A stretch of 64,000 nt of DNA from Planktothrix sp. (GCA_044238405.1 JBIIDK010000001.1:6114-70113); one strand, 5' to 3'. Counted from the first letter of the stretch, positions 4,115-15,825 are shown. Notes: generated by a model from the sequence alone, not told the origin. Numbers and translations: made by a program.

Positions 4115-4509
4115 ATCTATCTCCAAAATGGAAGATGGGTCTGCTCCTCCTTACCCTGTGTCTGAATTTGATCTCAGTCAGATTCAAAAATGGGAAAAGG
4201 TGGGGACTAGCCCCGAAGCCAGAGAGATTTTACCATACTTTAGACAGTTGGCTTGAGGCTTTAAAAATCAATATGCACATTCGCTAATTTTCAGCCGGGT
4301 AAAACGAGATGTGATTTCCTTCAAAACGCCAATAGACTGTCAATGTAAAATCTTGTTAAAAGTGGCAGTTTCTCAAGCTTGAGAGCTTAGTAGCTTTTAA
4401 AATAAAAACACTATTGTATGGGCAGGTTGATCAAAATCTTTTTTAAGATTGTTCGGCTGATTGAAAAACCTACCCCTTTGTCAACAAAAACACAGTTTGA
4501 GGAATTACT

Positions 4510-6345
4510 GTGCAACTAAAAACTAAAATAGCGGCAAAACGGGCAACAGGTGCTTATGCCTTGATGGATAGTTTGAAACGTCATGGCGTCAAGCATATTT
4601 TTGGCTATCCGGGTGGGGCGATTTTACCCATTTATGATGAACTGTATCGCTTTGAAGCCACCGGGGATTTACAACATATTCTCGTGCGTCATGAACAAGG
4701 TGCTGCCCATGCGGCGGACGGTTATGCACGGGCGACGGGTCGAGTCGGAGTCTGTTTTGGCACATCTGGGCCAGGGGCAACCAATTTAGTCACCGGAATT
4801 GCAACGGCCCACATGGACTCAATTCCGATGGTGATCATTACGGGACAGGTTCCTCGTCCCGCTATTGGCACCGATGCCTTCCAAGAAACGGACATCTATG
4901 GTATTACCCTTCCGATTGTCAAGCACTCCTATGTGGTGCGTGACCCTAAAGATATGGCTCGCATTGTCGCTGAGGCGTTTCATATTGCCAGTAGTGGACG
5001 TCCTGGCCCAGTGCTGATTGATATTCCTAAAGATGTTGGTTTAGAAGAATTTGATTATATTCCTGTTAATCCGGGGGAAGTGAATTTACCCGGATATCGC
5101 CCCACGGTCAAAGGCAATACCCGTCAAATTAATCAAGCGATTAAATTAATTCGCCAAGCAGAACGACCGTTGTTATATGTTGGGGGAGGTGCTATCTCTG
5201 CTGGAGCCCATGGGGAAATTCAAGAGTTAGCAGAATTGTTTAATTTGCCTGTGACAACAACTCTCATGGGTAAGGGTGCTTTTGATGAAAATCACCCCTT
5301 ATCGGTGGGAATGTTGGGAATGCACGGCACGGCTTATGCTAATTTTGCCGTTACCGAATGCGATTTATTAATTGCCGTTGGTGCTCGTTTTGATGACCGA
5401 GTGACCGGGAAATTAGATGAATTTGCTTCCCGTGCCAAAGTCATCCATATTGATATTGATCCGGCGGAAGTTGGGAAAAACCGCGCCCCTGATGTTCCGA
5501 TTGTTGGGGATGTTAGACAGGTGTTAGTGGATTTATTACGTCGATGTCATGAAACCGGAGGGGGAACGGAAACCACCCAAACGGCGGAATGGTTAGAACG
5601 CATTCAACGCTGGCGTGAAGATTATCCTCTAATTGTCCCAACCTATGACGATTTCCTCTCTCCTCAAGAAGTAATCGATACGTTGGGTAAAATGGCGCCC
5701 CAAGCTTACTACACAACCGATGTGGGACAGCACCAAATGTGGGCCGCCCAATTCTTAAAGAATGGCCCCCGTCAGTGGATTTCTAGTGCTGGTTTAGGAA
5801 CCATGGGTTATGGAATGCCTGCGGCGATGGGAGCAAAAATGGCACTTCCTGATCAGGAAGTGATTTGTGTGGCTGGGGATGCCAGTATTCAGATGAATAT
5901 TCAGGAGTTGGGAACCCTGGCTCAATATGGGATTCATGTTAAAACCGTGATTGTCAATAATGGTTGGCAAGGTATGGTACGTCAGTGGCAAGAAACCTTT
6001 TATGGCGAGCGCTATTCTTCTTCGGATATGCAGCCTGGAATGCCCAATTTTGTGATGTTGGCTCAAGCCTACGGCGTGAAGGGAATTAAGGTGACTCGAC
6101 GGGAAGAGTTAAAGGATGCCATTGCCGAAATGCTGGCGTTTAATGGCCCGGTGTTGATGGATGTGCAGGTGAAACGGGATGAAAACTGTTATCCTATGGT
6201 CGCACCCGGTAAGAGCAATGCTCAAATGATTGGTTTACCAGAACGGACAAATTTAGAAACTATTGAGTTAGTGTATTGCAGCAATTGTGGTGCGAAAAAT
6301 GTCGGCAGTAATAATTTCTGTCCTGAGTGTGGAACAAAGCTTTAA
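4510..6345 (+). CDS. ilvB: Acetolactate synthase large subunit with C-terminal zinc ribbon
   Basis: [51 protein letters not shown]; ends CSNC..CPEC. Confidence 0.97.
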
Positions 6346-6367
6346 TTAATGTGATTTGAGTGATGAG

Positions 6368-6393
6368 CAACCCCTATATGGGGTTGTTTTTTT
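6368..6393 (+). terminator. Intrinsic terminator after ilvB
   Basis: CAACCCC-tatat-GGGGTTG followed by T7. Confidence 0.85.
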
Positions 6394-6914
6394 ATGCGTT
6401 GATTCTAGTTGCAGTCCCCCAAACCTGATTCTAAGTTATCTCACATTTAAACTTTATATCCCAGCCAGGGAGGACGCTAACACAGAAGAGGCTTTCCCGA
6501 TTTCTGAATACACAATATAGATACTTAACAGCTTATTAGTCAAAAGTTGTTGGGCTTCAGCCTTTATCCCTTCATTATTTTGCTTCAGTCCCGCGAACGA
6601 GATTCTATTAGTTAAAAGTTCTGCTCTTGCTTCGATTCACGAAAACTATAGTAAACCAAATACAACCTCTTGTCAAGATTCATTTTCTATGATGTGGATT
6701 GTCTAAGGTATTGAAATCTGCATCAACATTGACACTCTCAGGTCTGAAGACACGCTCGTTTTCAATCTCCCACCTTAGTCTTATAAACACTTTCTGAGAT
6801 GCTTCATTTCACTCAGCATGACAAAGTGTTATTTGATTTATTTTGTAATAGAATTGCAGTATCTTTCTGATTTCATTCAGCATGACAAAGACTGCAATTA
6901 TTCTAGTTTAACGT

Positions 6915-8339
6915 TTAAATTTTATCAGCAAAATGTTCCTGTAATAAATAATGAATAAAACGATAGCGATCGCCTGTCCTCTGTAATAATAATTTACGAC
7001 TACAATCTTTTAAAAACCGTTGATAATTCCAAGGAATATTCCCATCTTTCCATAAAACCCATCGGATAGTAAACTGTTCTATTTTTTCCTTTAAACCTAA
7101 CTTGTCTAATAAAATTGCAAACAATAATCCTAAGACCATTCCCAGAATTAATAGTGAAGTTTGACTTAAAATAACTCCTGTTAAGATGATCAGCAGAATG
7201 AGCAGCCAGATTAAACCTAAAATTATCTTTAAAGTCACTTTATAACGTTGCTTTTGTTCTCCATCGTTTAACCAATGGATAGGAATCTTTTTAACCGAAA
7301 ATTCGATTAATTCATCAGCTTTAAGATGAGTTGCTAACCATCCTAACCACCGTCTAAAATCCTCAGATTTCGGTGCTTTTTTTGGGGAATATTCTGATTT
7401 ATAAATATCCTGATTCAGTTGACGGCGAATATAAGCATTAAATAAATAGTGACGTTGTTCCTCAAAAGAATGAAGGTGTTTCCAAGACATGATTAAAATT
7501 TCTTCATAAGCTAACGTCATCATCGTTAAATATAACGGAACTTTCGCTAACTTTAATAAAGATTCATCTCCGTCAATATTGTGCCAAAGTTCTCGACTGC
7601 GAGAATTAATCAGATAATCCTGTATTTGTTGCGTTGTTAAAGGACGTAAAAAAATCGCCCCATTGAGTTGTAAACGTTCAGGGAGTTTTTGATAACTAAT
7701 AACATTTGCACAAATCACTAAATGTAACGGTGCAATCTCTCCATTTAACAATTGATTAATCTGTTGAACACATTGAACCTGTTTCGGGATTGGAAGTTCA
7801 TCTAACCCATCCAATAAAGGTAAAATTTTAAGTTTTTGCATCCAATTTTCGCCTAGAGAAATAGCAATTCCATACTTCAGATAAAGTTGTTCTAAAATCC
7901 AATCTACGAGAGTTTGTTCTGAATTTTTCCAGGCTAATAAATTCAGTAAAACCGGAATCGGTTCTTCCCCATCCGCTTCCGCACGACCTATTAATACTTT
8001 AGTTAATCCGATTAACGTTGTTGTTTTTCCTGAGCCCGGAGCCCCTAAAATTAATAATCTTCCATTTAAGCGATCAAAAACTTGAATAATTCCCGTATCC
8101 GGTGTTAAACGAACACTGGGTTGATGGCTGACTTTTAACTCTACATCCCAAATTCGTCGCATTTTTAACGGGGGGGTTTCCTGCGCCAAATGCCTTAATA
8201 CCGCGCGATGTAAAGACTGTAACCGATACTGCTTCACTTCTTTTTCAACCTGAAGCAGTACCTTTTGACGATTTTGCAACTCAACTTTGGAAGAAGCCAA
8301 TTGTGCCATTGAAAGTTTAGAATTTGTAAAAAACAGCAA
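6915..8339 (-). CDS. NACHT/STAND-type NTPase with C-terminal transmembrane segment
   Basis: Walker A GAPGSGKTT, Walker B PLLDGLDEL, hydrophobic helices near C-terminus, terminal YRFIHYLLQEHFA. Confidence 0.85.
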   Translation of the reverse strand: MLFFTNSKLSMAQLASSKVELQNRQKVLLQVEKEVKQYRLQSLHRAVLRHLAQETPPLKMRRIWDVELKVSHQPSVRLTPDTGIIQVFDRLNGRLLILGAPGSGKTTTLIGLTKVLIGRAEADGEEPIPVLLNLLAWKNSEQTLVDWILEQLYLKYGIAISLGENWMQKLKILPLLDGLDELPIPKQVQCVQQINQLLNGEIAPLHLVICANVISYQKLPERLQLNGAIFLRPLTTQQIQDYLINSRSRELWHNIDGDESLLKLAKVPLYLTMMTLAYEEILIMSWKHLHSFEEQRHYLFNAYIRRQLNQDIYKSEYSPKKAPKSEDFRRWLGWLATHLKADELIEFSVKKIPIHWLNDGEQKQRYKVTLKIILGLIWLLILLIILTGVILSQTSLLILGMVLGLLFAILLDKLGLKEKIEQFTIRWVLWKDGNIPWNYQRFLKDCSRKLLLQRTGDRYRFIHYLLQEHFADKI

Positions 8340-8509
8340 CCTATCCGTTGTCAGAATTTAGAATTAGTATATCCCTAGAAAATCCAGTTGTTAAATTTTA
8401 TTGGGATCTCCTGAAAAATTACATTAAAATCTGTAAACTCAGCCATTCTATCAAAGATATTCCTCAAGGAATATGCGATCGCGATTCGCCACAAACGAGG
8501 TTAACCGAT

Positions 8510-9256
8510 ATGTCCATTAAACCTAGTCAACTGATCATAGCAGGTGCGGTCGGGGTGATTGCTGGAGTCACAATTGCCTTGATGACCGTTCAGTCTCCCT
8601 CCTCGAAATCGTCCCCACCCCCTCAAACCGAGTCTCCCCGACCTCCTGAACCCCCCATTACCTCGGTTCCCGCATCCGTTACCAATACATCACCACCATC
8701 GGAAACACCTCCTATCGCTATCATTAAACCCCCTATGGAGGGTTGCAAAATTAGTATGGCGGTTGTCAAAGATCCCGATGCACCGTTGAACGTTCGTTCA
8801 ACACCGGAAGTAACAGAGGGTAATATTGTCGGTCAATTGAATAATAATACCTTTGTTTTTGTAATTGAAGAAAAAAACGGATGGTTTAAAATTAATAATC
8901 CTGTGAGTGGATGGATTGCTAAAAGTCGCACCGAGAGCAGTTGTTCAATAGTAGAAAAAAATATTGAGTTTTTACCGGGTGGAAATGCAGCGTTAGTTCA
9001 GGGAAAAATTATTGGAGGAGGAAGTCACAATTATAAAATTACAGCCATTACAGGTCAAACCTTAACGATTGAGAATTATAAATCTGTATTCCCAATGGTA
9101 ATGAGTCCCAATGGTGAATTATTAACAGATAATCTGGGTATTACACCCGATACAAAAGTTTTTTCTAATAAACTTCCCCTAACTGGAGAATATACGTTAC
9201 AACTAGATTCTAATTATAAAGGCTTTGAATATGAGTTTTTAGTTAAAGTTGAGTAA
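8510..9256 (+). CDS. Membrane-anchored protein with Pro-rich linker, bacterial SH3-like domain and PPC-like C-terminal domain
   Basis: MSIKPSQLIIAGAVGVIAG anchor; PLNVRSTPE...NGWFKI..PVSGWI SH3b pattern; LPLTGEYTLQL. Start likely ATG8510, not 8348. Confidence 0.7.
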   Translation: MSIKPSQLIIAGAVGVIAGVTIALMTVQSPSSKSSPPPQTESPRPPEPPITSVPASVTNTSPPSETPPIAIIKPPMEGCKISMAVVKDPDAPLNVRSTPEVTEGNIVGQLNNNTFVFVIEEKNGWFKINNPVSGWIAKSRTESSCSIVEKNIEFLPGGNAALVQGKIIGGGSHNYKITAITGQTLTIENYKSVFPMVMSPNGELLTDNLGITPDTKVFSNKLPLTGEYTLQLDSNYKGFEYEFLVKVE

Positions 9257-9258
9257 TC

Positions 9259-9441
9259 TTAAATTAAGGATTCATGTTCAGTGTTATCAAATTCTAGGCA
9301 AAGTTCTATTGCTTCTTGAATTCGTAACCTAAGCTCATCTAAGGATGTTGCTTGTGTGTGACAACCTTTTAAAGTAGGAACTGATGCTACAAAAAAACCA
9401 TCAGAATCTTTCTCAATCAGTACATTAAATTTTTTGACCAT
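9259..9441 (-). CDS. Short HicB-like antitoxin, copy 1 (60 aa, no DNA-binding domain)
   Basis: FNVLIEKDSDGFFVASVPTLKGCHTQATSLDELRLRIQEAIELCL is the HicB N-terminal domain pattern. Confidence 0.85.
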   Translation of the reverse strand: MVKKFNVLIEKDSDGFFVASVPTLKGCHTQATSLDELRLRIQEAIELCLEFDNTEHESLI

Positions 9442-9482
9442 TTGTTAACCGCTTAAATAAATTTATTTTACTAAATTAAATA

Positions 9483-10406
9483 TTACTGTATTTTAAGGCC
9501 AATATATCCAATAATAATTTGTCCTGGCATCAGGGGGAGAAAATATAGTCTCCAAGCACCAGGTGTCATTCTAAGATGCAAACTGAAAGTTCGTTCTGTC
9601 TGATCAGGACATCTAAAAGTCAACTGCTCCTTAAATTTCTTTAACCTAGACTCGCTTTCTGGAGATGCTTTACTGGGAAGATTATCATAATTAAAAGAAC
9701 CGAATGTCCATCTCTTAGAACATTCTTCAATTTCACACAAGCGCTTCACAATTGGTTCAATCATCGGAAGTCCATGTTTAATAATCTTTAATTGATCTTC
9801 AACAGCATCACAAAATACTAAGTGAGGAAACAAATCTGATTTCCGTTGCCACAAATCAATACCATTATATATTTCTAGCTTTTTAGGTAGATAGCGTTCA
9901 GGTAGATTTTTAACTTGGTCAGCATTTATTAAATTATAAATTTCTATAATCTCTGGAGGGTTTTCATCGAGCTTGAACGTGAGATTGATCAATTCGCTCG
10001 AAAAATCAGGTGCTTGCTGCAAGCTAATCAACATTCCTTTTAAGTATGCTGCACCAGCCAATGAACTTTCACAATAGTCTTCACCATTAAATTCGCATTC
10101 CCAATATAATAGTTCTTGATTTAAAATATCTAAGATAAAAGGCCCATCTGTAAATAATTTAATCAATAATAATGCTTGCACTTGATCATGATCATTAGAT
10201 AATGATTTTTCATACACCCAGTCTTTTACTGTATAGTTTTCTGTAATTTTGCAATTTGAAAATAATTCATGTATATAAATAGAATCATTTCCTAAAATGG
10301 GTTTAATTGATTTGATAACCTCTGTTAAAGCTTTCATGAGCGTGTCAGCCTCATAAAGATTTTTAGCTTGCCCAATAAAAGATAATTCGTTAATTAATAA
10401 ATTCAT
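9483..10406 (-). CDS. Putative effector of a Menshen-like system (NsnC-like), RelE-like C-terminus
   Basis: ATG10406 overlaps the ATPase stop (TAATG); C-terminal FSLHLRMTPGAWRLYF..IIIGYIG. Confidence 0.55.
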   Translation of the reverse strand: MNLLINELSFIGQAKNLYEADTLMKALTEVIKSIKPILGNDSIYIHELFSNCKITENYTVKDWVYEKSLSNDHDQVQALLLIKLFTDGPFILDILNQELLYWECEFNGEDYCESSLAGAAYLKGMLISLQQAPDFSSELINLTFKLDENPPEIIEIYNLINADQVKNLPERYLPKKLEIYNGIDLWQRKSDLFPHLVFCDAVEDQLKIIKHGLPMIEPIVKRLCEIEECSKRWTFGSFNYDNLPSKASPESESRLKKFKEQLTFRCPDQTERTFSLHLRMTPGAWRLYFLPLMPGQIIIGYIGLKIQ

Positions 10407-11503
10407 TACATTAATTGGATTAAATCTTTTTGAGTTTGATCGAAAAAGCCAGAAGGCCATTGATTAATTCGTCCATTTTTATCTATTTTAGGCGATACTA
10501 CTTCTGTAATTAATTGTCCATCCTCCTCTATCCGTTGAAAGTAATGTAACTGAACATCTTCCGGTTTAATTTTGCCATCATGAACTGCAAGGCGAATTCC
10601 ATTCAAAACATGATCGCTGTGGGTTTCTACAACAATTTGAACCCCACAACTTGCTGCAAGTGCTAACAGTTGACCCATTTGGGATTGTCCTTTAGGATGC
10701 AGATGAGATTCTGGATTTTCAACAAGAATTAAAGTTTCGGGTTCAGCAGCCAAAATAGCAACTAAAATAGGTAAAGTATATGTGACTCCAAAACCCACAT
10801 TAAATGGACTATAACCTCTACTTCCTTTAAAAAAATATTGAAGTGTTATACGCTGGGTTAGTAAGTTTTGTTCAGTTTTGATTGAAATTCCAGGGCTTAT
10901 TTCTCCCACCCAAGCATCAACTTGATCTTTTAAACTGAGTGATTTTGCTTTAGGATGACTTAATTTTTCATGGGGGATATCTTTATTTCCAAAAGTGTCT
11001 AAAAAATGAGTTGCATACTCTCCATTTATTCCAAGTTGTTTTTTTTGAATCACATCAAACTCTGACATTGGGTATGAGATTTGAGGCCCAATTCGTTCTG
11101 CTTTTAAGTAATGAAATTTTTTATCCTTAAAAATGCTAGATTTATAAATTTCAGGTTCAACTTTCTCTGATGCCACTTCTAAAACATTTAATTCTTTAGA
11201 AGAACTAAAGTTCCAAATTCCTTTCTGTTCATTTTCTAAATCTATTTCAAATCCAATTAATCCATTTTCTATATACTCAAAAAGTGCGTCTTTTCCTGTA
11301 CCAATATATACTTGTTCATCATTTAAAATTAAACCCTTGTTAGGAAGCAAGTCTCTCTGATATGAACGGCGTAACAGCATCAAAGCTTGTAATACTGAAG
11401 ATTTTCCTGTACTATTCAAACCTGATAATAAAGTCAAAGGTTTAAAAGAAATACTTTGATCTTCAAAAGGTTTGAAATTGATTAGCCGTAAATTTTCAAT
11501 CAT
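10406..11503 (-). CDS. ABC/SMC-type AAA ATPase with DUF3696 C-terminus (Menshen NsnB-like)
   Basis: SGLNSTGKSS Walker A, NVGFGVTY signature, VENPESHLHP Walker B, VETHSDH, IDKNGRINQWPSGFFDQ. Confidence 0.85.
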   Translation of the reverse strand: MIENLRLINFKPFEDQSISFKPLTLLSGLNSTGKSSVLQALMLLRRSYQRDLLPNKGLILNDEQVYIGTGKDALFEYIENGLIGFEIDLENEQKGIWNFSSSKELNVLEVASEKVEPEIYKSSIFKDKKFHYLKAERIGPQISYPMSEFDVIQKKQLGINGEYATHFLDTFGNKDIPHEKLSHPKAKSLSLKDQVDAWVGEISPGISIKTEQNLLTQRITLQYFFKGSRGYSPFNVGFGVTYTLPILVAILAAEPETLILVENPESHLHPKGQSQMGQLLALAASCGVQIVVETHSDHVLNGIRLAVHDGKIKPEDVQLHYFQRIEEDGQLITEVVSPKIDKNGRINQWPSGFFDQTQKDLIQLM

Positions 11504-12582
11504 TACAACACTTCCTTAATAATTGTTTCAATATGGGCTAAACGTTTTTTAACACTTTCTTTATTTCCTGTCTCTCTATAAATTGTAGCATCAAACTCAC
11601 CGTTTGTTTTTCTATTTAAAAGATTATAACATAAATCATCTTTGCGATGAATCAAGATTTTTATAGCATGATCATCTAATCGATCCAAGTTAACAGACCA
11701 AGCCTCAAATAGAGCTTTATTGATAGGATACCGTCTTTTCCGCTCAGGTGACTTGGGCTTACGAAAAGCTTCTCTACCTAATATATCATAAGCTGCATCC
11801 ATAGCGCGATTAAAACGCCATCTTAATGATTCAATTTCTTGCTCACTCATTTGGTTTATCTGAGCCATTTTGTCATTTAAAAAAACATCATAGTCTTTAA
11901 AATTATATTCAAAAGCATGACTATCAGCTAGAGCTAAAAAGCGCAAAATACATTCCTGATCTAACATTCTTTTATATTTTAAACTGTTACCTGTAGCGGT
12001 TTTAAAAGATTTTGAATTTGCTAGAGATTTTAATAAATCCGTCGCTTGACCTTGATTTTTAGCATAACGCATTTCCTGTGAAGACAAAGGAAAACCAACC
12101 CGATTAATTCGCTTATACAAGCTAAACATTACATCTTTAGATGTTCCTCTTAAGATTAAAAATATAGTTAATTCTGTTTCTCTAATTCGTCGCCTTAAAT
12201 AACCAGGAATATCGGAAGATTTGGCTCCATTAAGCTGTTCTAAAAATTCCAAATTTTTTAATTCCAAGGTTTCTTCTATTAAAAATTCTTTAAAAGTGGT
12301 TAACCGTTGTATTCCATCAATAACAAACCATTCTTCTTCATTTGTTGCATCAATATAAAACGGTGGAATTGGAAAAAGAATTAAAACAGATTCGATTAAT
12401 CTACTTTTAGCTACTTGAGTCCAAATTCCTTGATTTCTTTGAAACTCTGGAGCTAAATTCAGTTGATTATTTTCCAATCTCGTTAGAAGTTGCTGAACCG
12501 TCATGGGTCGAGTTGAAACACTAATAAAATCAGGATCAAAAAACTCTGAAATTGTTAGTTCATCGTCTGAGTTGAATAACAT
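11503..12582 (-). CDS. DUF262 (ParB/GmrSD-like) protein (Menshen NsnA-like)
   Basis: PEFQRNQGIW, SRLIESVL..FPIPPFY, VIDGIQRLTT motifs; stop overlaps the ATPase start. Confidence 0.85.
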   Translation of the reverse strand: MLFNSDDELTISEFFDPDFISVSTRPMTVQQLLTRLENNQLNLAPEFQRNQGIWTQVAKSRLIESVLILFPIPPFYIDATNEEEWFVIDGIQRLTTFKEFLIEETLELKNLEFLEQLNGAKSSDIPGYLRRRIRETELTIFLILRGTSKDVMFSLYKRINRVGFPLSSQEMRYAKNQGQATDLLKSLANSKSFKTATGNSLKYKRMLDQECILRFLALADSHAFEYNFKDYDVFLNDKMAQINQMSEQEIESLRWRFNRAMDAAYDILGREAFRKPKSPERKRRYPINKALFEAWSVNLDRLDDHAIKILIHRKDDLCYNLLNRKTNGEFDATIYRETGNKESVKKRLAHIETIIKEVL

Positions 12583-12590
12583 AATAATTA

Positions 12591-12758
12591 TTAGTAAAAA
12601 TTTTCAAATTCTAGGCAAAGTTCTATCGCCTCTTGAATCCTTGACCTAAGCTCATCAAGGGATTTTGCTTGTGTATGACAACCTTTCAAACTAGGAACTG
12701 AAGCCACAAAATAACCATCAGAATCTTTCTCAATCAGTACATTAAATTCTTTAATCAT
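12591..12758 (-). CDS. Short HicB-like antitoxin, copy 2 (55 aa; absent from ORF track)
   Basis: Translated by hand: MIKEFNVLIEKDSDGYFVASVPSLKGCHTQAKSLDELRSRIQEAIELCLEFENFY; AGAGG upstream. Confidence 0.85.
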   Translation of the reverse strand: MIKEFNVLIEKDSDGYFVASVPSLKGCHTQAKSLDELRSRIQEAIELCLEFENFY

Positions 12759-12841
12759 TTTCTAACCTCTAGTAAACCAAAATAGGAGCAAGCCTGATCT
12801 TGCCCCTATCATCATAGATTTATTTTAGCTAATTTCGTCAA

Positions 12842-14260
<1,419 letters not shown>

Positions 14261-14367: not shown

Positions 14368-15825
14368 TTATTTGAAATCCGACAGAGAAATTTCATCATC
14401 ATCTGAAGAACCTGTTAATCCGTCGATATCAATATCGTCCATGTCTCCAGTTGTTAAATCACCCATATCGTCGAGATTAAAATCCCCTAAATCATCGGAT
14501 GAAAAATCATCATCCCCTAATCCTAAATCGTCTAAATTATCCCCAATATCGAGATCGAGTCCATCGGAAGAATTATCTTCTAACCCGAAATCACCCAGAT
14601 TATCATCCAGATCCGAATCTGTATCTGTTGAGTCCAACCCTCCTAGATCATCGGAACCCAAATCATCCGCTTCTAAATCTAAATTAATATCCCCATCCAG
14701 GTCATCAGCGGCTAGAACTTCTGACCCTAACCCTAGATCGTCGAGAGCATCAGCGTCCAGGTCATCGGAGGACTCTAAACCAAAATCAATATCATTGCTG
14801 GATTCTGTCTCTTCGCCGGGTTGTGTGTGAACCTCATCCTCCCAGACATCAGATTCGGTATCAATTTCTAATCCGCCTGATTCTGCTTCGACATCTAAGC
14901 CCATATCCAGGTCATCAGAACCCATCTCATCGGCATCTAAGCCCATATCCAGGTCATCAGAACCCATCTCATCGGCATCTAAGCCCATATCCAGGTCATC
15001 AGAACCCATCTCATCGACATCTAAGCCCATATCCAGGTCATCAGAACCTATCTCATCGACATCTAAGCCCATATCCAGGTCATCGACATCTGCCGATTCT
15101 GATTCATCATCCCACCCTAGATCCAGGTCTTCCTCGGCTACGTCAGTCGCCTCTGTGTCGATATCTAAACTGAGATCCCCATCGAGATCATCGGCCATAT
15201 CACCTGTCTCGACCTCCATGTCCAAATCATCGTCCATTGATATTTCATCAATGGTGATTTCTTCTTCGTCGAGATCAAGTGGCGCGGAGTCCTCAAGGAT
15301 ATCTGGAATCACCGCAGCCCCTCCGACAACAGCAGCAGTAGCAGCAGCAGCGACGGCCATAGCTGCAACATTGGGTTGTTGTACAGCCACGTCTTCGGGT
15401 ACAACGGGAGGATGATATCCAGGGACAGCCTGAGTTGCAGTGGGTTGTACTTCCGGGGTGGGATGATAACCGGGGGTAGCAGAAACCGGAGTCACAACTT
15501 GATAAGCTGGAGCAACTGCCGTTGCAGGTTGGTCTGGGGTAGACCTAAAGCCCAATGCTATATCGGGGTCGAAATTGAGTCCTAAAACATCAATCAGTTT
15601 TTCGGGGTCTGGATTGAGTTTAGAAAAAGGCAACATCAGTTGGGCTGCCTCTGGGTCAAGGGCGTTGATCGTTCCCAAAATGAGGGAGGAGGCAGGTCTT
15701 CGACCCCCGTCTGGGGTCGGTATTGAATTCAAATCCATTTGCAGTACCAGCCACTCTCGATTGGCTTGGTAATATTGCAACCACTTATCTTTAAGCGCGG
15801 TGGTAAAGTCTTTGAAGAAAGCCAT
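14368..15825 (-). CDS. DUF5331-like protein with very long acidic low-complexity tail
   Basis: N-terminal LKDKWLQYYQANREWL..TPDGGRRP..LGLNFDPD; position between chlL and chlN; D/L/G/E-rich C-terminus. Confidence 0.75.
   Translation of the reverse strand: MAFFKDFTTALKDKWLQYYQANREWLVLQMDLNSIPTPDGGRRPASSLILGTINALDPEAAQLMLPFSKLNPDPEKLIDVLGLNFDPDIALGFRSTPDQPATAVAPAYQVVTPVSATPGYHPTPEVQPTATQAVPGYHPPVVPEDVAVQQPNVAAMAVAAAATAAVVGGAAVIPDILEDSAPLDLDEEEITIDEISMDDDLDMEVETGDMADDLDGDLSLDIDTEATDVAEEDLDLGWDDESESADVDDLDMGLDVDEIGSDDLDMGLDVDEMGSDDLDMGLDADEMGSDDLDMGLDADEMGSDDLDMGLDVEAESGGLEIDTESDVWEDEVHTQPGEETESSNDIDFGLESSDDLDADALDDLGLGSEVLAADDLDGDINLDLEADDLGSDDLGGLDSTDTDSDLDDNLGDFGLEDNSSDGLDLDIGDNLDDLGLGDDDFSSDDLGDFNLDDMGDLTTGDMDDIDIDGLTGSSDDDEISLSDFK
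14892..15084. repeat. 42-bp coding tandem repeat, ~4.6 copies (SDDLDMGLD[V/A]DEMG)
   Basis: Unit catctaagcccatatccaggtcatcagaacccatctcatcg(g/a) starting at 14892, 14934, 14976, 15018, 15060. Confidence 0.95.

Follow-up and report, generated by a model that had tools for sequence, protein, structure and literature searches.

A Menshen operon between two short hicB genes

Between chlN and a convergent SH3-domain gene, a 64,000-nt stretch of Planktothrix sp. DNA (GCA_044238405.1, JBIIDK010000001.1:6114-70113; hereafter the window) carries five co-oriented minus-strand open reading frames (ORFs) in region 9259-12760, in the order hicB1-nsnA-nsnB-nsnC-hicB2 (Table 1). The central three match the anti-phage system Menshen (NsnABC), and the outer two are short genes of the HicB antitoxin family. 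Our ORF calls agree with the gene order that a first-pass annotation had read from the sequence alone, and also with the TAATG coupling of the three core genes, the coordinates giving one shared base at both the nsnA/nsnB and the nsnB/nsnC joint. The start of nsnC was placed at 10406 rather than at 10460, where the mechanical ORF begins, because PADLOC NsnC models align from Met19 and the gene caller gives 307 aa on the identical contig L001. On the comparisons described here, the Menshen operon probably occupies a variable slot in which the hicB pair are truncated relics of a Class 2 hicBA toxin-antitoxin (TA) module and not a working part of the defense.

Table 1. Features of the locus, with positions counted from the first letter of the window (L numbers denote compared contigs; alleles are listed in Table 2)
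Feature	Position	Strand	Description
chlN	12842..14248	-	468-aa ORF; Pfam Oxidored_nitro on identical contigs; conserved left flank
Terminator-like hairpin between chlN and hicB1	12781..12810	-	12-bp stem, then T-rich tail
Direct repeat copy 1	12601..12770	-	Ribosome-binding region and hicB codons 1-53; repeat family D1
hicB1	12591..12758	-	55 aa; Pfam HicB_lk_antitox, profile positions 1-46 of 123
Deletion junction	12589..12598	-	hicB 3' end and entire hicA gone, by alignment to L019
nsnA	11503..12582	-	359 aa; ParB/DUF262 component of Menshen, sensor by the published model
nsnB	10406..11503	-	365 aa; ABC-type ATPase with DUF3696 tail
nsnC	9483..10406	-	307 aa; putative effector, N-terminal domain and RelE/BECR-like C-terminal domain
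Direct repeat copy 2	9284..9453	-	Repeat family D1
hicB2	9259..9441	-	60 aa; Pfam HicB_lk_antitox, profile positions 1-47 of 123
SH3_3-domain gene	8348..9256	+	ORF, convergent; Pfam SH3_3 on identical contigs; conserved right flank
Mosaic segment	13800-10600		chlN 3' end, hicB1, nsnA, most of nsnB; closest allele d (L012), 89-93%
Mosaic segment	10600-9851		nsnB tail, NsnC N-domain; closest alleles f/j (L005/L085), 85-93%
Mosaic segment	9850-9260		NsnC C-domain, hicB2; closest alleles e/j (L010/L085), up to 94% in hicB2

All three core proteins were matched by PADLOC profiles: NsnA at 2e-118 with 350 of 385 profile positions covered, NsnB at 1.2e-124, and NsnC at 1.1e-62 over its full length, with 10 further NsnC models also matching. 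Pfam agreed, giving GmrSD_N (PF03235, DUF262; 3.5e-17) in NsnA and AAA_15 (1e-21), AAA_21 (6.5e-18), and DUF3696 (5e-19) in NsnB. No Pfam match was found for NsnC, nor for its separate halves at expect values (E) of up to 10, and NCBIfam held nothing specific for any of the five proteins. Judged by these profiles, the three-gene core is a genuine Menshen (NsnABC) anti-phage operon next to chlN, as first annotated. Menshen was reportedly described by Millman et al. in 2022. In the published model, itself a hypothesis, NsnA is the sensor, NsnB the ATPase transducer, and NsnC the effector, whose nuclease C-domain is regulated by NsnB (PMC12065111); NsnC combines an N-terminal inactive-PIN-like domain with a variable C-terminal nuclease (Li et al. 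2025, PMC12065111). The window operon would work like other Menshen systems, with NsnA sensing, NsnB transducing, and NsnC acting through a RelE/BECR-type C-terminal nuclease domain. It resembles them in joining a DUF262/ParB protein, an ABC-type ATPase with a DUF3696 tail, and a two-domain third protein in one operon, and it departs from them in nothing that concerns the core; what is new here is a within-genus, single-locus series of at least 10 alleles. At the amino acid level, nsnA is 87% identical to the L012 and L019 alleles and 43-45% identical to the L003 and L010 alleles. Lake metatranscriptome contigs in three runs cover nsnB at 100% identity.

NsnC had also been annotated as a RelE-like effector. 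An AlphaFold model of the whole protein (50 homologues) had a predicted local distance difference test score (pLDDT) of 86.9 and resolved two domains joined by residues 169-176, a low-confidence linker; modeled by itself, the 130-residue C-terminal part reached a pLDDT of 94.5. In Foldseek searches of the PDB, the top matches of this C-domain were RelE (2KC8, E 0.17, probability 0.82; 4FXE, E 0.44), YoeB (7V6W, E 0.74), and ParE (8C24, E 0.74), all of them weak, with none reaching E 0.001 and template modeling (TM) scores of 0.4-0.65. The full-length structure search returned noise only, with ParE and HigB among the weak matches, and a profile of the 50 NsnC homologues against PDB sequences gave spurious matches only (e.g., ARIH1) and no toxin. 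Like RelE, YoeB, and ParE, the modeled C-domain places an alpha-helical portion ahead of an antiparallel sheet; it differs from them in being fused to an N-terminal domain and in being presumably controlled by NsnB, with no dedicated antitoxin. Its conserved His/Arg/Tyr/Lys positions are H277, R279, R286, Y301, and K305. Li et al. 2025 assigned most NsnC C-domains to the BECR/RelE superfamily (PMC12065111). A RelE-like effector is plausible from the model, with the ranking of structural matches and the literature in agreement, although none of those matches is significant.

Two copies of hicB without their 3' ends

The outer genes share an ungapped direct repeat of 170 nt at 88% identity, with 21 mismatches and a longest perfect run of 36 nt, which extends from 12 nt 5' of each ATG to codon 52-53. 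Past the repeat, the ORFs end in ...EFENFY* and ...EFDNTEHESLI*. Over 156 aligned coding bases, hicB1 and hicB2 differ at 18, of which about 10 are synonymous and about 8 non-synonymous, and 7 of 52 amino acids are changed. The ungapped alignment reported earlier (at about 89% identity) therefore holds, but its counts (17 mismatches in 157 nt, about six amino acid differences) have to be revised to those given here.

Both copies exceed the cut-off of PF15919 (31.4 and 30.3 bits, against 27) and are 83-96% identical to named HicB family proteins; their relatives in the PDB are TTHA1756 (2YZT) and HicB (6G1C/6G1N). A hicB2 query retrieved a large cyanobacterial HicB family with a usual length of 71 aa, the nearest matches being from Planktothrix. 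These 71-aa proteins end in ...EFENSENESLEFIGIQKVSVQV, a tail missing from both window copies. One stops at residue 55 and the other at residue 60, without ...SLEFIGIQKVSVQV, so that 11-16 C-terminal residues of the full-length protein are absent. The first copy, hicB1, matches the initial 53 residues of the L018/L019 HicB (71 aa) at 96% identity. The second is homologous to the 71-aa gene over codons 1-59 (all sense codons) and ends at 9260, where the SH3 flank homology common to all SH3-type alleles begins.

Class 2 hicBA modules encode a single-domain HicB of 60-90 aa with a beta-beta-beta-alpha-beta fold and no DNA-binding domain (Gerdes 2024, PMC10865869), and by analogy with that fold the missing C-terminal segment would be its last strand (PMC10865869). 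The first-pass annotation had pointed to the lack of a DNA-binding domain in both copies; none is present in either, but this is normal for this Class 2 HicB family, so it is no anomaly. Its other observation, that no hicA adjoins either copy, was borne out over a wider span: tblastn with the orthologous 74-aa HicA (HicA74) found no match in the 64-kb window at E below 1.

An allelic series downstream of chlN

Alleles of the site were gathered from contigs that encode HicB homologues or an identical ChlN (Table 2). At least 10 alleles occur at this one site, which is a hypervariable slot between chlN and the convergent SH3-domain gene. In its intact form, the TA module consists of hicB (71 aa) followed by hicA (73-74 aa; Pfam HicA_toxin) with an overlap of 4 nt, and hicA is present in L018, L019, L077, and L121-L128.

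Table 2. Alleles found downstream of chlN (numbers after gene names are lengths in aa)
Allele	Contigs	Arrangement
a	L121-L128	chlN-hicB71-hicA73, then Uma2 (-); no Menshen; clean empty site
a'	L018	As a, plus nsnA remnants (about 150 nt)
b	L019, L077	hicB71-hicA74-nsnA-nsnB-nsnC(262/280), then Uma2
c	L020	hicB71 and about the first 6 codons of hicA, then Uma2
d	L012-L016	hicB55-nsnA359-nsnB370-nsnC268, then SH3
e	L010 (Planktothrix sp. FACHB-1365), L011	nsnA401-nsnB370-nsnC313-hicB60, then SH3
f	L002-L006	nsnA393-nsnB369-nsnC319, then SH3; no hicB
g	Window, L001	hicB55-nsnABC-hicB60, then SH3
h	L031-L036	hicB66-nsnA359-nsnB364-nsnC250, then SH3
i	L030	As e; 1453-bp deletion inside nsnB-nsnC; nonsense codon giving hicB54
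j	L085	nsnA-nsnB-nsnC305, no hicB, then Uma2-type flank sequence

The boundaries of the slot are sharpest in the comparison with allele f. Its ChlN protein is identical to that of the window and its flank DNA 98.5-99.95% identical (chlN DNA 99.5-99.95%), and this identity ends abruptly near two stop codons, 3 nt beyond that of chlN (12839) and beside that of the SH3 gene (9260); between those breaks, the two sequences are 24-55% diverged or unalignable. Allele f holds no hicB remnant. Among SH3-type alleles, the DNA of the SH3 gene is 96-99% identical. The hicB60 relic stands alone, with no upstream hicB, in L010, L011, and L030, and in allele e it follows nsnC after the same 41-nt spacer. Homology of L085 to the window ends at 9453, the upstream edge of repeat copy 2.

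A search for empty and swapped-cargo alleles had been proposed, and both kinds exist; the empty one, however, holds a full-length hicB with hicA. A sequence of about 60 nt, ATCATGTTTTTTATCACCCAGGTTAGCACGCTTATATAATATTTA..., follows hicA in L121 (2645-2692) and nsnC in L019 (9419-9522). Because it follows hicA in the empty allele and nsnC in the occupied one, the Menshen cassette is a clean insertion or deletion of about 3 kb, bounded by hicA and this sequence.

At chromosomal defense hotspots, conserved core genes enclose systems that replace one another. The present site shares with them near-identical flanks, a divergent interior, and sharp homology breaks at stop codons, and it differs in that, empty alleles aside, the occupants seen are Menshen variants with or without hicBA. 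Exchange appears to proceed by homologous recombination, no integrase or transposase having turned up.

Some individual contigs deserve comment. L085 (DATNRE010000472.1) is labeled a Candidatus Obscuribacterales metagenome-assembled genome, with chlN at 85% DNA identity and an NsnC 75% identical to that of the window, and is probably a mis-binned Planktothrix-like cyanobacterial contig. In L077 (Planktothrix sp. GU0601_MAG3, "complete"), hicB is frameshifted at 4467-4683 by an extra T in a T run and nsnB (6001-7063) is split into 260 and 107 aa, which reflects either real decay or long-read homopolymer errors. In run X35, an RNA contig follows the SH3 gene as far as 9257, beyond which come 190 nt unlike hicB2, indicating another right-junction allele in that lake. 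Exact look-up of the SH3 protein returned the window-type allele only, along with three short contigs that end inside hicB2.

Repeated loss of hicA

Alignment to the intact allele b, by DNA and by multiple alignment, places the origin of hicB1. Window position 12599 corresponds to L019 6160 and window position 12588 to L019 6452: the two sequences part at nucleotide 160 of hicB and match again from 6 nt before nsnA. The missing interval of about 0.29 kb (291 bp) comprises hicB codons 54-71, the last 18, and all of hicA (L019 6213-6437), and the shortened gene ends 8 nt upstream of nsnA. By this alignment, hicB1 is shown to be a 3'-truncated remnant of a resident hicBA left by the deletion. The other copy, hicB2, is likewise a relic, truncated at codon 60 by the start of the conserved flank.

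The same deletion junction is found in allele d. A separate 222-bp deletion (L019 6197-6418) in allele h spares 65 codons of hicB and 19 nt at the 3' end of hicA. Because the d/g, h, and c junctions differ, the site has seen at least three separate losses of hicA. Damage to hicB itself is also seen, as an 8-nt deletion of the ribosome-binding region in L012 (allele d) and as the nonsense codon that shortens hicB60 to hicB54 in L030 (allele i).

Toxin-less antitoxin stubs are the expected end state of TA decay, toxin loss being tolerated and antitoxin-first loss not. The window copies are like Class 2 hicBA in matching the same HicB family, and the orthologous Planktothrix site holds hicB71-hicA; they differ in that the window has no hicA and each hicB lacks its last 11-16 codons, as fits relics and not a working TA pair. 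Solitary hicB genes have been noted in defense islands (Gerdes 2024, PMC10865869), and the difference here is that intact, half-decayed, and decayed alleles all occur at one orthologous site.

A mosaic operon and the twin arrangement

No single allele is closest to the window over the whole operon. Sequence comparison with the other alleles of the site showed the window operon to be a three-way mosaic (Table 1), with one breakpoint inside nsnB near 10600, upstream of which identity to L012 is 89-93% and downstream of which identity to L005 is 85-90%. Within NsnC, the N-domain is 78-80% identical to those of L003/L005/L085, and the C-domain is 65-68% identical to those of L010/L085 and just 39% identical to that of L003. 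The NsnB tail and the NsnC N-domain travel together, which fits the NsnB-NsnC interface predicted by others (PMC12065111). Such shuffling of NsnC domains and the NsnB tail among alleles is a further likeness to Menshen at large, for which the same has been described across genomes (PMC12065111). The twin arrangement would have arisen when recombination inside the Menshen genes joined a d-like haplotype (chlN-hicB55-nsnAB...) to an e-like one (...nsnC-hicB60-SH3).

A different origin, in-place duplication of one hicB on this chromosome, might be suggested by the direct orientation of the copies, their common register, and their spacing of 3.3 kb. We rejected it as scarcely credible, since each copy is closer to the hicB of another allele than to its twin: hicB2 is nearest the L010 relic (92% DNA identity over 180 nt) and hicB1 nearest the full-length hicB of L018/L019 (96%), against 88% between the twins. 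Moreover, the synonymous divergence (dS) between the copies is 0.38, their truncation points differ, and each exists alone in other alleles.

The first-pass annotation had proposed that the hicB pair serve as homology arms of 157-170 bp for loading, swapping, or amplifying the cassette or excising it as a circle. The 36-nt perfect run is roughly the textbook minimum for RecA-type recombination, and some breakpoints do fall at hicB edges (9453 for the end of L085 homology, 9260 for the start of the SH3 flank), yet cargo has been swapped between the same flanks in Menshen alleles without any hicB. Because allele f, with no hicB, breaks at 12839 and 9260, whole cassettes are exchanged via the conserved flanks in such alleles; and because swaps occur in hicB-less alleles with breaks outside both hicB copies, hicB is better regarded as cargo than as an arm. 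The hicB1 segment is itself a recombination patch relative to its surroundings, and its codons 38-39 suggest gene conversion between copies, but most alleles hold one hicB or none, the 12% difference between the window copies speaks against a recent duplication or an att-type repeat, and ORF and Pfam scans detected no recombinase or integrase domain among the five cassette genes or their neighbors. Nor did a hybrid chlN-hicB-SH3 allele appear in any look-up, although the metagenome scan for one, with the hicB1 upstream region joined to the hicB2 tail, found nothing and was uninformative: the hicB2 positive-control pattern, which matches the window, L001, L010, L011, and L030 locally, matched nothing in metagenome contigs either, and the negatives of that scan are untrustworthy here. 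A role as recombination arms is improbable on this balance. An att-flanked mobile cassette was likewise rejected, with no recombinase domain present and the repeats being coding relics of 170 nt at 88% identity.

The codons in question are Arg38-Ser39 of hicB1 (AGG TCA; window 12640-12650 against L010 8110-8120), which are the same in the downstream-type hicB60 of FACHB-1365. Elsewhere, codons 38-39 read Ile/Met-Glu in full-length alleles and Arg-Leu in the window hicB2. This sharing may mark a short gene-conversion tract between the two repeat lineages.

Constraint and transcription of the hicB relics

Several observations weigh against regarding the hicB copies as relics. Both ORFs are open, with the start codon and a ribosome-binding-like sequence kept. 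The ratio of non-synonymous to synonymous divergence (dN/dS), calculated throughout from few sites (33-38 synonymous), is 0.12 between hicB1 and the L012 copy with the same junction and 0.18 between hicB1 and hicB2, which taken alone would indicate constraint. The allele is widespread: 66-99% of its sampled words were recovered in each of at least 20 freshwater metagenome runs. One 680-nt, low-depth RNA contig from a related strain, at about 95% identity, spans the chlN 3' end, hicB1, and nsnA, so that hicB1 is probably transcribed with nsnA. Finally, the order of events that placed relics on both sides of the operon is inferred and not observed.

We did not accept dN/dS as decisive proof of maintenance, given the few sites and the status of hicB1 as a recombination patch. 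Over the interval 12750-12601, hicB1 differs from allele b at 7 positions and from allele d at 14, whereas the segments on either side are closer to d. Because hicB1 is closer to the full-length b than to d, unlike its neighbors, this segment has been exchanged with functional alleles, and much of its divergence may predate the truncation, having arisen in functional genes. The earlier statement that both ORFs look maintained consequently does not follow from the excess of synonymous changes. Between hicB2 and its L010 (allele e) orthologue, there are 9 non-synonymous and 5 synonymous differences, and the resulting dN/dS of 0.47 fits relaxed constraint, over few sites. Open frames of 55-60 codons say little by themselves: a rough estimate, not computed, puts the odds that 14 substitutions leave a 55-codon ORF open at about even.

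The sequence ahead of hicB1 offers another reason for its persistence, namely, that it is kept as DNA: nsnABC could draw a promoter, a 5' leader, or a coupled upstream ORF from the sequence ahead of hicBA together with hicB nucleotides 1-160. Only 20 nt separate hicA from nsnA in the intact allele, which suggests that hicB, hicA, and nsnABC are transcribed as one; the two independent hicA deletions, of 291 bp and 222 bp, spared the 5' part of hicB and the chlN-hicB spacer; and L012, which lost the hicB ribosome-binding region, kept the rest. The RNA contig spanning the junction points the same way, but it is a single low-depth contig of a related strain, and hicB-less alleles have a different, 108-nt spacer before nsnA. 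A promoter scan found 18 sites against 16.6 expected in shuffled sequence and nothing above that background. Also against a leader is the terminator-like hairpin about 20 nt before the hicB1 ATG (Table 1); every hicB-bearing allele keeps the stem (GGGGCAAG/CTTGCTCC) but has its own 6-nt loop. By the crude measure of contig depth, coverage in one metatranscriptome fell from about 1260 over chlN to about 7 over the contig carrying hicB1 and nsnA. Expression of hicB1-nsnABC may depend on read-through of the hairpin or on an unrecognized promoter. We regard such a leader role as a tentative possibility; it is compatible with a relic origin of the copies. On the relic reading, the hicB copies would be dispensable for defense, with hicB1 at most supplying an upstream transcribed sequence or leader for nsnA and hicB2 being a stub at the edge of the variable region.

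hicB and Menshen in other genomes

An NsnB-anchored scan of one genome per species yielded 80 Menshen loci, almost all cyanobacterial, with 6-kb flanks where the contig allowed. Searches by tblastn with the 71-aa HicB and by a hidden Markov model of 26 family members against six-frame translations found hicB at just 1 of the 80, Planktothrix L077. By tblastn with HicA74 and a profile, a clear hicA was found at the same single locus, together with one marginal opposite-strand match in L065 (E 0.0096). HicB occurs 0 times in Li et al. 2025 (PMC12065111). The link between hicB and Menshen is thus confined to this Planktothrix locus, which argues against co-option of HicB as a Menshen regulator or antitoxin.

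That co-option, in which the truncated HicB proteins would regulate the operon or restrain a RelE-like NsnC nuclease as antitoxins, had been the second proposal of the first-pass annotation. The open ORFs, the low dN/dS between the copies, the probable co-transcription of hicB1, which ends 8 nt before nsnA, and the RelE/BECR-like appearance of the NsnC C-domain (PMC12065111) are what might be expected of it, but Menshen of the same NsnC family works, or at least persists, without hicB in L003-L006, in L085, and at 79 loci of other genomes, and the same nsnA/nsnB is accompanied by a hicB of 55, 66, or 71 aa. Both copies lack the segment expected to form the last strand of the single-domain fold (PMC10865869), and Pfam places a DNA-binding domain in neither. 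The dN/dS of hicB2 against its L010 orthologue, the nonsense codon in L030, and the lost ribosome-binding region in L012 also speak against conserved function. The known partners of HicB are HicA toxins, with a double-stranded RNA-binding domain (dsRBD) fold, and not RelE-fold toxins. Taken together, co-option appears highly unlikely.

A broader proposal combines elements of both readings: the 5' segment of hicB could be portable homology for the capture, conversion, or deletion of whole or half Menshen cassettes, or truncated HicB could tune Menshen. We give this little credence; if it were true, hicA would have been lost repeatedly from Menshen-bearing alleles because the HicA toxin and the Menshen nuclease are redundant or in conflict.

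In Nodularia and other cyanobacteria, truncated orphans of this hicB family, 55-59 aa long, are common; they lie in unrelated contexts, with no hicA or Menshen nearby. In L027-L029, from another cyanobacterial lineage, a 55-aa truncated hicB (1466-1633 in L027) follows an AAA_21 ATPase and a 214-aa protein, its end overlapped by a convergent glycosyltransferase gene, as a second instance of a hicB stub edging a possible two-gene defense pair.

Neighboring genes

Just past the SH3 gene, a minus-strand gene (6915-8339) encodes a 474-aa P-loop protein with a GAPGSGKTT motif and hydrophobic C-terminal segments. Its faint-to-weak NACHT matches on related contigs leave room for a defense-type STAND ATPase beside the Menshen slot. 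On the other side, a minus-strand gene between chlL and chlN (14368-15825) encodes a 485-aa acidic, Asp-rich repeat protein (Pfam DUF5331) and contains 42-nt tandem repeats, with units at 14888-14992. Depending on the strain, its product is 485, 499, 491, or 489 aa or is divided among split ORFs, and BLAST offsets differ, which suggests copy-number variation.

Implications

The locus belongs to known kinds, a Menshen hotspot with TA relics, and presents no new mechanism; the recombination-arm and co-opted-antitoxin readings are not supported. Its value lies in the series: within one genus and at one site, it offers a natural experiment comprising intact hicBA alone, hicBA with Menshen, at least three independent stages of hicA loss, Menshen operons that differ in their NsnC N- and C-domains, and degraded Menshen. 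Domain shuffling of Menshen, which Li et al. 2025 inferred across phyla (PMC12065111), is seen here at population scale, alongside a stepwise view of a TA module decaying to orphan antitoxin stubs. For annotation, the lesson is one of caution: where a small, toxin-less hicB lies beside a defense system, truncation relative to full-length orthologues should be checked before a function is proposed.

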